The position numbers and the translations under genes were made by a program. The notes under the pieces were generated by a model. It was not told where the DNA came from, did not search any database, and saw only the letters and a program-made list of their open reading frames with translations. A DNA stretch of 56,142 nucleotides, counting the filler, from Deltaproteobacteria bacterium (GTDB taxonomy: Bacteria; Myxococcota; JACRCW01): the NCBI GenBank assembly GCA_016218805.1. It is 4 parts of 3 records of this genome, joined end to end, with 100 filler letters (N's around TTAATTAATTAA, not from the genome) between each part and the next. Parts side by side here need not be neighbours in the genome. Positions count along the whole stretch, not along the records: positions 46,033 to 56,142 come from JACRCW010000003.1; 3 more parts are not named here. One strand, written 5' to 3'. Shown piece by piece: positions 45,363 through 56,142 of this stretch. Position 1 is the stretch's first letter. Every line of letters starts with the position of its first letter.

Positions 45363-45460
45363 AGGGACCTCCGTCCCCGCCCCTGGCGAGTCTATCACTT
45401 GGCGCGTGGCCAGTGGCTTGGACACGGTGGGTGACGGGAGGCATGCCATACGGGGACCCA

Positions 45461-45782
45461 CACCGGCCCCACCCGGAGGCACCACCAGCGGGCCCCGGCA
45501 CATCACCGGCACGCCCCCCGGCCAACACCAGCAGGCCCTGGAAGCACACCAGCACTCCCCCGACGCGTCACCAGCGCGCCCGGAAACCCACACCAGCACC
45601 TGCCGGGCAGCCTCACGGGTGCGCTGGTGTCGGATCCCGGGCGCGCTGGGGTCGGGTCCGGGGCGCGCCGGGAGGTGGTCCCCCGCGCGCTGGCAACGCT
45701 CGGCGGGGGCGCCGGATACGTTCGCGAGCATGCTGGCGCCGCCGCCCGGGCGTGCTGGAGCGCGCGGGACCCCGCGCCGGGG
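45461..45782. repeat. Non-coding inverted array with 21-22 nt period
   Basis: CACC(A/G)GC at 45461, 45483, 45504, 45526, 45547, 45569, 45591; inverse GC(T/C)GG at 45623, 45645, 45667, 45689, 45711, 45732, 45754, 45776. Confidence 0.8.
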
Positions 45783-45792
45783 TATGATCTTT

Positions 45793-45932
45793 GGCCCTCC
45801 TGCACTCCGAATGGGTTGAAATTGACGCATGGGATCACGAGAGCATGGTTGGCAGCGGCGGGCAGAGTCCGCCGAACTTGGCATAGGCCAGCGCAATGAG
45901 GGCTTCGGCGGAGTGGAATCCGAAGGCAGTCC
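45793..45932 (-). mobile_element. ISL3-family IS right end with transposase C-terminus
   Basis: Minus strand encodes TAFGFHSAEALIALAYAKFGGLCPPLPTMLS* (stop at 45835-45837), resembling ISL3 transposase C-termini; terminal GGCCCTCC...TGGGT resembles an ISL3 IR. Confidence 0.8.
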
Positions 45933-50256: not shown

Positions 50257-50817
50257 ATGGTCACCCAGCCCTCGCCCGTGCTGTTCACCTACGCGGAGTA
50301 TTCGCTGATCCCGCCGGACGGGAAGCGCTGGGAACTCATTGAGGGGGACTTTGAAGTGAACCCGGCACCCGTGACGATGCACCAGGTCCACGCGCTGCGA
50401 CTTGCGCGCACGCTGCTGACGCAACTGGAGGACATGCGACTCGGCGAGGTCTTTGTGGCGCCGTTTGACGTGATCCTGGGTCCGCACAACGTGGTGGAGC
50501 CTGACCTGGTGGTCATCTCCGCGGCGCACAAGGACCGCGTCAGTGACCGCGGCCTGGAGGGCATCCCGGACATCATTGTGGAGATCCTGTCGCAGAACCG
50601 CGCGTATGATGAGGTCCTCAAGCGTGCGCTGTATGAGAAACACGGGATTCCTGAGTACTGGATTGTCGACGGTGCCGCGGCCACGGTCACCCAGTTCGTG
50701 CTGCAGGAAGGGCGCTACACCGTCCACGCGGTGCGTGGGCGCGAGGACACGCTGACCTCCCCGCAGTTCAACGGCCGCGTCCAGGTGGCGCTGTCCTACG
50801 TGTTTGCACCGCGCTGA
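50257..50817 (+). CDS. Uma2 family PD-(D/E)XK endonuclease
   Basis: RWELIEG, EPDLVV, PDIIVEILS, K..LY...GIPEYWIVD. Confidence 0.9.
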   Translation: MVTQPSPVLFTYAEYSLIPPDGKRWELIEGDFEVNPAPVTMHQVHALRLARTLLTQLEDMRLGEVFVAPFDVILGPHNVVEPDLVVISAAHKDRVSDRGLEGIPDIIVEILSQNRAYDEVLKRALYEKHGIPEYWIVDGAAATVTQFVLQEGRYTVHAVRGREDTLTSPQFNGRVQVALSYVFAPR

Positions 50818-51931: not shown

Positions 51932-52497
51932 GGATGGTGCTGCTGGTGGTTGCCGCGCTGTGCGCGTGCCCCACCGGCCGCTTCCTGTGCAATGCGGACG
52001 GGGATTGTCCATCCGGTCAGACCTGCACCGGCGGCACCTGCGCCACGCCCGAGAACCTGTGCGACGTGGCGCCCTGCGTGGACTGCCAGGCCGCGCGTTG
52101 GCCCATGCCGGGTGACCGGGTGCGCGCTTCGCAGTTCCAGCTGCGCGAGCACACCGTCTATGACCCCGCGCGCGGGCTGGAGTGGGAACGCGCCACCGAG
52201 GCGGCGCACTTCACGCACGCGCAGGCGGTGGAGCGGTGCCGGTGCCTGCCGCTCGCCGGGCGGCATGACTGGCGCCTGCCCACGCGCATTGAGCTGGTCA
52301 CGCTGGTGGACCACGGCAGCACCATGCCCGCCATTGACCAGGACGCGTTCCCGGGCGGCGGCGGGCGCCGCTGGACCGCGTCTCCCGACACGGATCCTGC
52401 CTTTGCGTGGGCGGTGGACTTTGACAGCGGGGCCGTCAGCGGCGCGCAGCGGGTCACCGGGCTGCCGGTCCGCTGCGTCCGTGGGAGCACGCCGTGA
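51928..52497 (+). CDS. DUF1566 (Lcl/CLec-like) lipoprotein
   Basis: VYD...GLEWE, DWRLPTRIELVTL, W.S, AWAVDF..G, VRCVR. Confidence 0.85.
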   Translation: MRMVLLVVAALCACPTGRFLCNADGDCPSGQTCTGGTCATPENLCDVAPCVDCQAARWPMPGDRVRASQFQLREHTVYDPARGLEWERATEAAHFTHAQAVERCRCLPLAGRHDWRLPTRIELVTLVDHGSTMPAIDQDAFPGGGGRRWTASPDTDPAFAWAVDFDSGAVSGAQRVTGLPVRCVRGSTP

Positions 52498-52931
52498 CCG
52501 CGCGCGCCGCACGCGCCCTGCTGTGCCTGTTGGCCCCTGCCGTCGTCACGGCGGCCGTGCCCCGCGAGTGGTACCAGTCCACGGCCACCACCGTGCTGGA
52601 CACGCGCACCGGGCTGACCTGGCAGCGCGTGCCTTCAACCACACCGGCCACAGCGTCCGCCGCCGCCGCCACCTGCCAGGCGCTGGCCCTGGGCGGCTTT
52701 TCCACCGGGTGGCGCCTGCCCACCATCAAGGAACTCCTCACGCTCGTGAACGAGGACCGCGGCGACCCGGCCATCGATATCGAGGCATTCCCCGACACCG
52801 TCTCCGTCGTGTACTGGTCCTCCACCCCCGCGGCGAACCAGCCCGGCATGTTCTGGGGCCTCGCGTTCATGTGGGGCACCACGGACATCCGCAGCGGAAC
52901 GGACACGGCGCTGGCGCGCTGCGTGCGGTGA
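52494..52931 (+). CDS. DUF1566 (Lcl/CLec-like) secreted protein
   Basis: VLDTRTGLTWQR, GWRLPTIKELLTL, YWSST, ARCVR. Confidence 0.88.
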   Translation: MTARAARALLCLLAPAVVTAAVPREWYQSTATTVLDTRTGLTWQRVPSTTPATASAAAATCQALALGGFSTGWRLPTIKELLTLVNEDRGDPAIDIEAFPDTVSVVYWSSTPAANQPGMFWGLAFMWGTTDIRSGTDTALARCVR

Positions 52932-52948: not shown

Positions 52949-53635
52949 TCAGCAGGTGCGCGCAAGCGCCTGCATGAACCGCGGTGTGTTCCTGAGGAGT
53001 TCCACCACGGCCGCGAATGAGGTGCCTGCCGCCGCGACCTCCTCGGCGGGGAAGTCCTTCGCCAACTCCTCGTTGTGGCGGTCCGCAAGGCAGCACGCGC
53101 CCTTGGTGTCCTCCACTTCATCAAGGAGGGCCCGGTCCGCCTTCCACTGGGAGAACAACTCCAGGTGCCGGCCGCACGGCCCGTCCCGGCACAACCGGCT
53201 CGCGGTGTCCGTCGCCTGGTAGAGCCAAGCCTCCATCTCAAAGTGCGGAATCACCGGCAGCAGTCCGTCAAGGACCGCGGGGTCTTTGCCACTGGCGTCG
53301 AGCACCCGCCGCACCCGGTCGCGGAACCGCTCCCGGAAGTGGCGCGCGTTCTCGCTTTCCTTCCGCTCTGACCATCGGCATTCGCCGTCCACGTGCATCA
53401 ACACGAAGTGACCCAGAGCGAGCCGCGTGGCGATTTCCCGCCGCAGTGTGATGGCCTCGGGCGCGTTGGACTTCCAGTGGCTGCCCCACCCGCCCGTTGG
53501 GCGTTCGGGCAGGTCAAGCTGGACCTTCTGGGTCTGGCAGCGCGGGTCCACGCAGCGGCACAGCTTCCGTGCCAGGTGCCGCATGACCGGATGCGCGGCG
53601 GCGGCGGAGTCCTCCGTCACCAGCAGGATCCTCAC
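52949..53635 (-). CDS. DUF4276/TOPRIM-like putative nuclease partner of ATPase
   Basis: N-terminal ILLVTED, HVDGE, PHFEMEAWLY; GTGA overlap with the ATPase. Confidence 0.65.
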   Translation of the reverse strand: MRILLVTEDSAAAAHPVMRHLARKLCRCVDPRCQTQKVQLDLPERPTGGWGSHWKSNAPEAITLRREIATRLALGHFVLMHVDGECRWSERKESENARHFRERFRDRVRRVLDASGKDPAVLDGLLPVIPHFEMEAWLYQATDTASRLCRDGPCGRHLELFSQWKADRALLDEVEDTKGACCLADRHNEELAKDFPAEEVAAAGTSFAAVVELLRNTPRFMQALARTC

Positions 53636-54786
53636 CACAGGTCGCGCGCTATCAGGATCTCGCTGAGCTGCTGGATTCCCACTTCGCGCGCCTCGAACAC
53701 GTCCCGGGCCGTGTCCGCGTCCACGTTTTGCCATCGCAGGGTCTCGCCGTCTCGCTTGCAGATGATGAAGGTCTTTTGCGCTTCCTGCGGGGAGCGCACC
53801 GGCACGTGGTCCAGCAGGAGCGAGTTCTGACTCGTCAGGAACGCCTGCCGGTCCCCGATCTCGTCGAGGCACGCGCGGATCCAGCTGTGGTGCATCCCGT
53901 TCACCAACTCGTCCGCGATAATCACGTCGGAACAGGCGGAGTAGTAGAAGAACGCCAGCAGGCGCTTCTGGCCGTAGCTGAGATGGCTCTCTGGGAACTG
54001 GCGAAACCCGTCGTCGAGGACGAACTTGAGTCCCTTGTAGCGTGGCCTGCCATGGTCCGCGTCCCACCAGACCATGCTCATGGACGCGTCCACCAAGCCC
54101 AGCAAAGGCATCAGTTTCCGCAGGAACGCGGGCACGTCAGTACGCGCGAGGCGGATGTCGTCGGCCGTCACCGCGGCGGCATGTCCCTTGAGGGCAGCGC
54201 GTGCGTCTTCCGGCAACAGAAGCCAGCTCCAAGGCCGCTCCTTCTCAACCTCCAGGCGCGGCGCAAGCTCGACGTCCCGCCCCGACATGCGGGTGAAGAA
54301 CTCCAATGACTCGTCGAAACGCAACTGCAGCGGCAAGGTGTCGGCGGGCTCCGGCCACAGCCCCGAATGGGTTAGGCACATTGCCAACCACCCCACCTTG
54401 AAGGGACGGTCGGCCGGCTGGGACTCAAGGTGCCACTCTTTCGGTTCGCCCTGGGGGCCCGTCCAGGTGAGAGCCACCTTCCACGACACCTCGGTCGTTA
54501 CGCCGCCCAGCAATCCCGCCACGTCTCTCCCTGCCACGCGGGCATTGCTGATGCTGACATCCGCGCGCGCGCTCCCATGGTGAACCCGGTAGGAGATGTC
54601 GAACTCCTCCTTCTGCAGTGGACCGAATTCCCCACACACCGCCATCGCCAGCAGGTCCAACAGCGTGGTCTTGCCCGTCGCGTTGAGCCCCAGCAGCACA
54701 TTGATGCCGTCGTTGAACTCCAGCCGCGTCCCCGGCGCCACGTTGCGGAACTTGCGAATCTCCATCGACTCCAGGCGCGCCTTCAT
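53632..54786 (-). CDS. ABC-type (AAA_21/OLD-like) ATPase
   Basis: Walker A GLNATGKT, signature LSYGQKR, Walker B IIADE, LTSQN; GAGGTG RBS. Confidence 0.88.
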   Translation of the reverse strand: MKARLESMEIRKFRNVAPGTRLEFNDGINVLLGLNATGKTTLLDLLAMAVCGEFGPLQKEEFDISYRVHHGSARADVSISNARVAGRDVAGLLGGVTTEVSWKVALTWTGPQGEPKEWHLESQPADRPFKVGWLAMCLTHSGLWPEPADTLPLQLRFDESLEFFTRMSGRDVELAPRLEVEKERPWSWLLLPEDARAALKGHAAAVTADDIRLARTDVPAFLRKLMPLLGLVDASMSMVWWDADHGRPRYKGLKFVLDDGFRQFPESHLSYGQKRLLAFFYYSACSDVIIADELVNGMHHSWIRACLDEIGDRQAFLTSQNSLLLDHVPVRSPQEAQKTFIICKRDGETLRWQNVDADTARDVFEAREVGIQQLSEILIARDLW

Positions 54787-54823
54787 CGGTCACCTCGCGG
54801 GTCCCAACTACCACGTGGCGGAC

Positions 54824-55034
54824 CCATGACACTGCCGGACATTCACTTTGACACCCCCGTTACACACCCTTGACGGTGCCATTGCATACCCTTGACGGTG
54901 CCCGCGCATACCCCAGACACCACCCCAGCAGACATGGACACCCCCCAAGCAGCACCTGACACCCCCCGTACACCGTGTCAGGGGGGTGTCAGGGGCGTTG
55001 TCCGGCACTGTCAGGGCTTGCTTGAGGGGTGTCC
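54824..55034. repeat. Non-coding inverted array with 11/22 nt period
   Basis: 11-nt units (TGACACCCCCG, TTACACACCCT, TGACGGTGCCA, TTGCATACCCT, TGACGGTGCCC...) plus inverted arms including a perfect 13-bp stem 54955-54967/54981-54993. Confidence 0.8.
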
Positions 55035-55042
55035 AGCGCGCG

Positions 55043-55924
55043 TCAGGCGTGCAGCGCGTCCGGGTCCACCACGTCACCGGTGGCGTGTTCCACCGCTTCT
55101 TCGTAGCTGCCGCCGCGCGTCTTGGTCTGGTTGGGGAAGGTCTTGTCCAGGCGCCAGCGGCGTTGGGCGTCCGGGTCATCCCCGGCCATGGCGCGGCCCC
55201 ACCCGCTGAGCCACTGCATGTACTCGTACAAGCACTTCACCAGCTTGCGGCGGTAGGCCTGCGCCTTGTTGCGTTCCAGGCCGGTCTTGAGGCGCAGGCC
55301 CGCCACCGTCCCCAGCGTGTCCACGGCGGTCTTCAGCGCCGCAATGTGCTGCCGGGCCACGGCAGGCTGGTCAAACTCGTCAACAATCTCCGTGGCCGCT
55401 TTCACCACCAACAGGCCCGCCCCGTAGAGCGCGCGCGGGCTGCCCAGCGCGCGGCGGATGTCAAAAACGCGCAGCGGGATCCCCACGGCGGACGCCCGCA
55501 GCGCCAGCTTGTTGCGCGCGGCCACCACGGCCCGCATGGCCACCAGCGCGTCCTCGGAGATGACCTCAGTGCGGGCACCAATGAGACGCGTGCCCACGCC
55601 GTGGTTCTGGAACTCATTGAGGAACTCCTGAAGCACCTCCAGGTGTTTGCGGGTGACCGGCATCTTCTCGCGAGCGAACGACGCGAGGTCTTCGTCGACG
55701 TTCTCCACCATCTCGCCCCCGTCCAGGTACAGCAGGCTGGGCGCGTACGGGAGGCGGATGCCGTAGTCGGGGGTGGCGTCCACTTCGCGGAGCATGATGG
55801 CGTGCGGCGTGCCACTGCGGACGTCCCACTTGCGCGCCTTCTGGGTGGTGCGGCTGTTGTTGGCGCGCGTGGCAACGGTGTTGCGGACGGAGGTCTTCTT
55901 CGCCTGTTTCTTCCTGGGTGCCAT
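55043..55924 (-). CDS. Hypothetical alpha-helical protein with basic N-terminus
   Basis: GGGAGG RBS; GC3-rich codons; MAPRKKQAKK start; amphipathic helices; no family recognised. Confidence 0.8.
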   Translation of the reverse strand: MAPRKKQAKKTSVRNTVATRANNSRTTQKARKWDVRSGTPHAIMLREVDATPDYGIRLPYAPSLLYLDGGEMVENVDEDLASFAREKMPVTRKHLEVLQEFLNEFQNHGVGTRLIGARTEVISEDALVAMRAVVAARNKLALRASAVGIPLRVFDIRRALGSPRALYGAGLLVVKAATEIVDEFDQPAVARQHIAALKTAVDTLGTVAGLRLKTGLERNKAQAYRRKLVKCLYEYMQWLSGWGRAMAGDDPDAQRRWRLDKTFPNQTKTRGGSYEEAVEHATGDVVDPDALHA

Positions 55925-56142
55925 GACTTCCCTCCCGTTGAGGTTGTGACGACGGCAATTACGGGACGCCCGGCGGGGTGCGCAAGTTCCTGAGCCCGCC
56001 GCGGGTGTGATCGCCCATGGTTGTGGTCCCTGCCGGTGGGGCAGCCACAGGATCCCAAAGAGCCGTTGTGGTGTGGCACAGCCGCCCCGGCTGTGCCGGT
56101 GCATAGCGACGTCACGGGTGTCCCGCTGGCGTCCCGGCCGGG

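Follow-up and report, generated by a model that had tools for sequence, protein, structure and literature searches.

In a bacterium of the phylum Myxococcota (GenBank assembly GCA_016218805.1), we find that a gene for a 293-aa all-helical protein without family match, here called the orphan, is paired with its own adjacent array of phased repeats. We put at about 50% the probability that gene and array form a module, a gene with its binding array, that spreads without a known transposase. The pair lies in a 56,142-nt stretch of DNA joined from several parts of the genome (the window, along which all positions are counted), next to genes for an ATPase and a putative nuclease. A preliminary description of this region, made from the sequence alone, had combined orphan, array and ATPase/nuclease pair into one candidate system; we confirm that these parts are real, but the three are not one system.

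An orphan gene followed by a phased foldback array

The locus forms the last 3.2 kb of contig C167 in a 6.4-Mb genome of 70% GC (C, L and G numbers are our labels for contigs, loci and genomes). Reading along the minus strand, the orphan gene (55043–55924) is followed by a non-coding stretch holding the array (54824–55036), the gene of a 384-aa AAA_21 ATPase (53632–54786) and that of a 228-aa DUF4276-like protein (52949–53635). The array begins 6–8 nt past the orphan stop and ends 36–38 nt short of the ATPase ATG at 54786, much as first described. Because contigs from two of four public DNA runs cross the ATPase-array-orphan junction, the locus is not misassembled; the four runs are from one study, and one of the bridging runs may be the source sample.

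The array has a period of 22 nt with an 11-nt sub-period. Identity at lag 22 is 0.46, a value that none of 1000 dinucleotide shuffles reached at any lag of 5 or more, and a reading as a coding heptad repeat was rejected, the period being 22. About three units run in one direction and about seven then follow inverted, so that the strand can fold back on itself around a dyad centre near 54974–54975 (folding z −3.6 as RNA and −2.5 as DNA). The dyad core (54935–55035) comprises 28 pairs, divided between two stems. When it is compared with a second copy of the array on contig C60, 55 of 56 cells of the dyad stay paired with two compensatory changes, a covariation that is equalled by 112 of 500 shuffles, two sequences being too few for significance. 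The array has no Rfam match at E≤1.

The orphan itself is, as the preliminary description had it, an unrecognised helical protein with a Lys/Arg-rich N-terminus: residues 1–35 hold 11 K/R and a single D/E, and most family members, not all, share a strongly basic N-terminus. Its AlphaFold model, built from 40 sequences, is all-helical (pLDDT 86.6, pTM 0.73) and contains two long helices of 55 and 61 residues; in this predicted build a basic N-terminal tail leads into a tandem pair of units, and each unit combines a helical hairpin with a helix of 55–60 residues. The two halves align weakly to each other (hhalign E 0.008, 99 columns), which suggests that the protein is the product of a tandem duplication. 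Conserved across the family are a C-terminal motif, G-x6-D-x5-R(Y/W)RLD, and the polar residues D68, E71, D79, R137, D250, R256, Y/W257 and D260. A 353-aa version starting at 56104 was rejected; that start lies inside an unrelated repeat element (see below), and relatives begin at the Met of 55924.

No Pfam, NCBIfam or PADLOC family matches the orphan. The structural comparison proposed at the outset gave an all-helical model, and Foldseek searches of PDB and viral libraries with two models returned nothing at E≤0.001. VIA-align returned only generic helical bundles (best Z 10.2, 99 residues, rmsd 2.5) and an Atlas structure search a best TM of only 0.37; absence of a fold match does not establish a new fold. 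In the ESM Atlas the nearest clusters are unnamed (0.94; 554 members, Myxococcota commonest), and the nearest named ones, at 0.85–0.87, are DUF6261, a lead only at these values below 0.9. Eight close relatives share 38–57% identity with the orphan, and a profile search gave 46 representatives at E≤0.001. Its distribution is patchy: a survey of 401 genomes from the phylum, which scored five candidates per genome, found the family in 14, and the seven paralogs of the present genome are the most in any one. A tblastn search of plasmid and phage collections gave no match.

The array accompanies the gene across the family

We collected 33 family loci, dropped three (two duplicates and one 5′ fragment) and tested the remaining 30 for an array of period 20–23 or 41–44 nt, with a score of at least 0.55, within 600 nt of the gene; 1617 genes of similar length from this genome, taken from crude gene calls, served as controls. 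An array was present at 17 of 30 family loci versus 101 of 1617 control genes, and downstream only at 14 of 30 versus 55 of 1617. That orphan gene and array belong together is supported. In the closest clade (L001, L002 and the window; support 100/99) all three loci have foldback arrays, the core of which differs from locus to locus. The similarity of arrays and that of their proteins are weakly correlated (rho 0.29 over 20 arrays; 13 of 5000 permutations).

Are these arrays read as DNA or as RNA? In L022, L025 and L033 the array lies upstream of the gene, and the two most alike arrays, those of L008 and L024, have a 6-mer cosine of 0.03 in the same sense and 0.43 when one is reversed, being opposite in orientation relative to their genes. 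Because array orientation flips between related genes and three arrays lie upstream, DNA-level sites are favoured over an RNA attenuator, and the attenuator that had been proposed to control the ATPase-TOPRIM pair is not upheld.

At about 4470–6700 of L001, the closest homolog with DNA available is split by an IS3-like element (named by eye), and the foldback array persists behind the 3′ piece. At L008, L009, L010, L012 and L013, from five genomes of two genera, the homolog stands head-to-head with a cas4-cas1 fusion, followed at two of the loci by cas3; the array tails there contain what we take to be an IHF-site-like sequence.

Phased arrays beside other helical proteins

Strong periodicity was found in 134 of the 1779 intergenic regions of at least 130 nt in this genome, and in 74 of these the period is 21, 22, 42 or 43. 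Some of the 21- and 42-nt cases may be uncalled coding repeats; periods that are not multiples of a codon (22 and 43) account for 36 of the 134. The 21/22 arrays are enriched between convergent genes (11/40 versus 166/1573) and depleted between divergent ones (5/40 versus 594/1573). Most of the roughly 74 arrays have no adjoining orphan gene. Among array-flanking proteins that passed a helical-composition filter, 18 of 21 look like orphans of this general build.

These other helical orphans (140–290 aa) each adjoin a private array of 21-, 22-, 42- or 43-nt period and fall into several families mutually undetected by profile; at least six further unrelated-looking helical families show gene-array pairing in this genome. 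They lie on contigs C15, C72, C21, C42, C159, C35, C73, C133, C141, C164, C108, C140, C13, C83, C93, C169, C59 and C143 (some of them our loci L034–L046). No Pfam match over cut-off was found among the 12 that were scanned. The best match of the orphan-family profile to these families has E 0.14, which does not establish a single superfamily. Helical orphans of 139–175 aa look like one repeat unit.

Solo arrays, deleted derivatives and an empty site

Arrays also occur away from their genes. The copy of the window array on C60 is 78% identical over 176 nt. It shares the left end of the window array, is about two units shorter and sits nine bases past the stop codon of an unrelated gene of 789 aa. 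The array of the paralog on C10 has an inverted solo copy on C110 (86%) behind a thymidylate-kinase-like gene (named by eye), and further copies exist for about ten gene-linked arrays. Deleted derivatives were found on C76, C19, C97 and C164; the one on C76 keeps its array together with only the last 129 bp of its gene. In other genomes, solo copies occur in G011, G331 and, partly, G119. The window array has no match in five related genomes.

The solo array of G331 is inverted and occupies a spacer of about 190 nt, the counterpart of which measures 25–35 nt in nine of 11 other members of the genus; of the remaining two, one carries another insert and one has a different upstream gene. The cognate gene is present in three of 13 genomes of this genus, and two of these three have the empty site. 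A further filled/empty comparison, G262 against G390, has only 70% identity. These data show that the arrays are dispersed and that one is a lineage-specific insertion. They fit the alternative raised in the preliminary description, that the gene and its array make up a mobile unit of their own.

Another foldback array of 22-nt period lies in the window at 45440–45800 (the end of C158), upstream of a hemerythrin-like gene (named by eye); this solo copy shares 83% identity with an array on C141 that adjoins another helical orphan.

The ATPase/DUF4276-like pair is an interchangeable neighbour

The ATPase, of ABC type and AbiEii/OLD/AriA-like, matches AAA_21 with E 5.8e-13, and its partner matches DUF4276 below threshold (E 0.0098). 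The GTG start of the partner overlaps the ATPase stop, and the pair is translationally coupled. Three DUF4276-like motifs are conserved in the partner group (E-D-S, H-x-D-x-D and E-x-W), with Glu replacing the second Asp of H-x-D-x-D in the window copy; we take these motifs to be of TOPRIM type, and the partner would accordingly be a putative nuclease. DUF4276-like relatives were found in 22 of 301 genomes, and longer flanks were examined for 20 of the 24 listed loci other than the window's own. An ATPase precedes the DUF4276-like gene in 19 of these 20, the orphan-family profile matches none of the 20, and an array (41-nt period, beside a different orphan gene) lies upstream in one of the 19 pair loci. 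The AAA_21/DUF4276-like pairs (L064–L107) form a distinct myxobacterial subfamily at varied sites between housekeeping genes.

Seen from the orphan, an AAA_21 gene follows at two of 30 family loci, both in this genome; behind the array in other genomes stand Uma2, AbiEii, WYL, Cas3, DUF559, pRiA4b-ORF3 or housekeeping genes. The order gene-array-AAA_21 does recur at C10 in this genome and, where the helical genes belong to other families, at C59 and in L092. A fixed three-part system is not supported from either side, since the pair comes without the orphan family at 20 of 20 loci and without an array at 18 of 19. The ATPase/DUF4276-like pair is an interchangeable neighbour, not a fixed part of the unit.

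Of the AAA_21 matches in this genome with a recognised Walker A motif (11 of 35 rows were dropped for missing it), six of 24 have an array within 500 nt upstream. After removal of seven transporter-like genes, judged by eye, five of 17 AAA_21 ATPases lie behind arrays, compared with 121 of 5038 genes, so pure accident is disfavoured. Thus, either defence-type ATPases and arrays share hot spots or the array serves any cassette that lands behind it.

PMC11464382 counts DUF4276 among the partners of AAA15/21 ATPases. The pair resembles the PARIS/OLD class in coupling an AAA_21 ABC-type ATPase to a putative TOPRIM-type protein, and differs from PARIS in a DUF4276-like partner instead of DUF4435/AriB and in an ATPase of 384 aa, shorter than the 55-kDa AriA. 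The best PADLOC match of the ATPase is AriA (E 1.4e-13, model positions 143–304 only), with GajA, PtuA and others also matching; the partner has no PADLOC match, AriB/DUF4435 included.

Beyond the pair, the window holds two tandem genes with Lcl C-terminal domains (51934–52931, plus strand), which converge with the nuclease-like gene, and, at 50257–50817 (plus strand), a gene for a Uma2 endonuclease.

The upstream hairpin belongs to a dispersed repeat element

The 10-bp hairpin noticed upstream of the orphan (56075–56097) exists and is not part of the unit: it lies in the right 140 bp (56003–56142, minus strand) of a dispersed 226-bp MITE (a miniature transposable element with inverted repeats), unrelated to the module, so we rejected it as a leader of the orphan. 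The MITE has terminal inverted repeats, 9-bp target duplications, no coding capacity and many copies, 11 right ends matching at 90% identity or more. It stands at about 20 contig ends or internal sites of this genome (G000) and causes many assembly breaks, that of the present contig among them. Its 9-bp duplications were seen on C10, on C31 and across five pairs of contig ends (C131-C13, C102-C163, C110-C61, C157-C7 and C12-C107; possibly also C115-C167, where 8 of 9 bases of the duplication agree, which makes C115 the candidate neighbour of the present contig end). A second, shorter related MITE is also present.

In seven of 13 right ends of these MITEs, the element ends 15–16 nt before a −35-like hexamer. 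The p-MULT elements (TnGBS, ISLre2, ISKra4) target promoters, inserting 15–17 bp before a −35-type box (PMC3942029), and because of this spacing the MITE probably marks the promoter of the orphan, without belonging to the unit. The likeness to p-MULT rests on the 9-bp duplication and the spacing before −35-like hexamers, the cognate transposase of the MITE not having been identified.

A gene with a proposed binding array: possible mechanism and alternatives

What could such a unit do? We suggest a two-part functional unit made of the helical gene and the array of its own that adjoins it. This array would be a set of double-stranded DNA sites two helical turns apart (21–22 bp, or 42–43 bp), set in the window as two opposed arms. 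An elongated two-repeat helical protein with a basic tail would most likely bind such neighbouring sites in a row along one face of the DNA, and may build a nucleoprotein scaffold on the array. The unit would then act as a mobile module of low copy number that occupies short spacers between genes, mostly right after a stop codon, and leaves deleted derivatives and solo arrays; the catalyst of its dispersal may be a host enzyme, or else another element's enzyme drawn to the scaffold. The same spots would also gather small cassettes for defence or of toxin-antitoxin type as interchangeable guests, the ATPase/DUF4276-like pair here among them. That the protein binds its own array as double-stranded DNA along one helical face we consider somewhat better than an even bet; that this binding is needed for dispersal is much more doubtful. 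Equally tentative is the stronger proposal of a new class of mobile element, an all-helical superfamily in which each protein polymerises on its own array and drives the copying of that array, with or without the gene, to sites behind stop codons, using no DDE, HUH, tyrosine or serine recombinase and seeding defence hot spots.

Several observations weigh against a spreading module. The orphan has no catalytic motif and, in structure searches, no nuclease or recombinase fold. Neither a terminal repeat nor a target duplication was seen at the one filled/empty site (G331), and none was seen at the ends of pairwise alignments of array copies, although these copies are 70–90% identical and old duplications could have eroded. 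No excision joint around the array was found in contigs of the four DNA runs, which drop rare forms, and no solo copy was found in three of the seven genomes tested with their own array (G345, G021 and G150). At the threshold used, 13 of 30 family loci lack an array, including the whole clade of L026 and L027. Shared descent alone can explain the correlation between arrays and proteins, and a single genome contributes seven of the 30, kin loci not being independent. Finally, the five orthologous loci fixed beside cas4-cas1 look like residence, not movement. The clade of L026 and L027 is itself long-branched, lies among housekeeping genes in two related genomes and is possibly a domesticated form of the family.

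Part of this evidence would suit a local regulator or nucleoid-type protein, its array an operator or a sopC-type centromere that sets expression of its own and the next gene, with solo arrays as passive leftovers of horizontal transfer and deletion. Besides the stable residence by cas4-cas1 in five genomes, such a regulator would account for arrays that often stop a few bases before a promoter-like sequence of the next gene (by eye), for the defence or toxin-antitoxin genes that come next in many loci and for the enrichment of AAA_21 ATPases behind arrays. We nevertheless think it improbable, roughly a one-in-four prospect: in G331 a conserved spacer has newly gained a solo array, most arrays have no orphan gene beside them, their enrichment between convergent and depletion between divergent genes is the reverse of what operators predict, and a consensus scan for promoters found none in the orphan-array-ATPase locus.

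Rather less likely still, the arrays could be independent minisatellite parasites of the BrickBuilt or REPIN kind, moved by another transposase or by recombination and sharing with orphan genes only their hot spots. Solo arrays are indeed more numerous than those linked to genes, two array loci of this genome have RAYT-like genes (by eye) nearby, and BrickBuilt is an intergenic minisatellite of 23 nt for which both filled and empty sites exist (PMC4596501). Mere parasites would not be expected a few bases from the stop of each gene as a private array, in several families of one phylum, with related motifs beside related proteins and the same pairing in the further helical families of this genome; nor were any terminal repeats or target duplications seen. 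Least probable of all, at long odds, is the model first put forward, in which the protein binds transcribed array RNA and the ribonucleoprotein or attenuator controls the ATPase-TOPRIM pair in a three-part defence system. All parts do share one strand and are separated by short gaps, the array as RNA folds well and has two compensatory changes, 22 nt also make two turns of A-form RNA, and the order with AAA_21 recurs at C10, C59 and L092. Against it stand the variable downstream gene, the pairs that do without the orphan, the varying side and orientation of the array, the many arrays that run in one direction only and the missing Rfam match. A gene with a binding array remains our preferred reading.

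Comparison with known systems

In REPIN-RAYT systems (Bertels and Rainey 2011, PMC3116915), a parent gene is flanked by its own repeat type, hairpin-capable copies lie extragenically and several families share a genome, each close to a gene of its own. Like them, the locus has a gene with its own repeats and, scattered outside genes, related copies that are able to form hairpins; unlike them, the partner is all-helical with no match to HUH or tyrosine transposases, and the repeats are phased arrays of 21–22 or 42–43 bp with two to four copies per family, not REP doublets in the hundreds. BrickBuilt of Porphyromonas gingivalis has a leader and a tail, terminal inverted repeats and short target duplications; its repeats are of one sequence and go with no cognate gene (PMC4596501). 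Shared with it are intergenic tandem arrays of about two helical turns, gain and loss of whole units and filled and empty sites; here, many private motifs and a cognate gene are found and no duplication was seen. The module would seem to act most like REPIN-RAYT (PMC3116915) or BrickBuilt (PMC4596501), and it fails their defining features because it has no transposase and no terminal repeats.

DUF6261 proteins (PF19775) are likewise all-helical, of similar size and have repeats at their loci: by eye, six of seven DUF6261-like loci have repeats of about 32, 42 or 63 nt, and the seventh has an internal stop. The DUF6261 Pfam model does not match the orphan and its eight close relatives at E≤1 or 26 further relatives at E≤0.01, and hhalign of the two families gave a probability of 0.2 (E 0.37) with a shallow DUF6261-like profile of 10 sequences. 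The present arrays differ in a period of mostly 21–22 and a mostly downstream position. The orphan family would carry the pattern of the DUF6261-like loci over to proteins without detectable homology to DUF6261, and adds to it solo copies and a filled/empty site.

The sopC-SopB pair of the F plasmid and iteron arrays set phased DNA sites beside the gene of their presumed binder. Here, the genes match no ParA/ParB or Rep protein (the ATPase is AAA_21, and the orphan has no ParB match), and the units sit in the chromosome, where they have many paralogs as well as solo copies. Repeat-RNA systems (type III toxin-antitoxin, CRISPR, retron) are not matched either, with no Rfam hit and with orientation and neighbour that vary. 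In the literature searched, which covered few subscription papers, we found no description of this gene-array pairing. We regard the two-part module as undescribed, a novelty judged from missing matches to families, folds and literature and not from a demonstrated mechanism.

What does the pairing mean for these bacteria? A single 6.4-Mb genome carries about 74 arrays of two- or four-turn period and some two dozen unannotated helical genes, all invisible to annotation. Should each protein read its private array, every pair would be a natural orthogonal protein-DNA code, and if the proteins also drive dispersal, they would provide a route of DNA mobility without known transposase chemistry. Such modules, if real, would also explain the recurring loci of a "hypothetical protein plus odd repeat" and some of the hot spots of defence genes.

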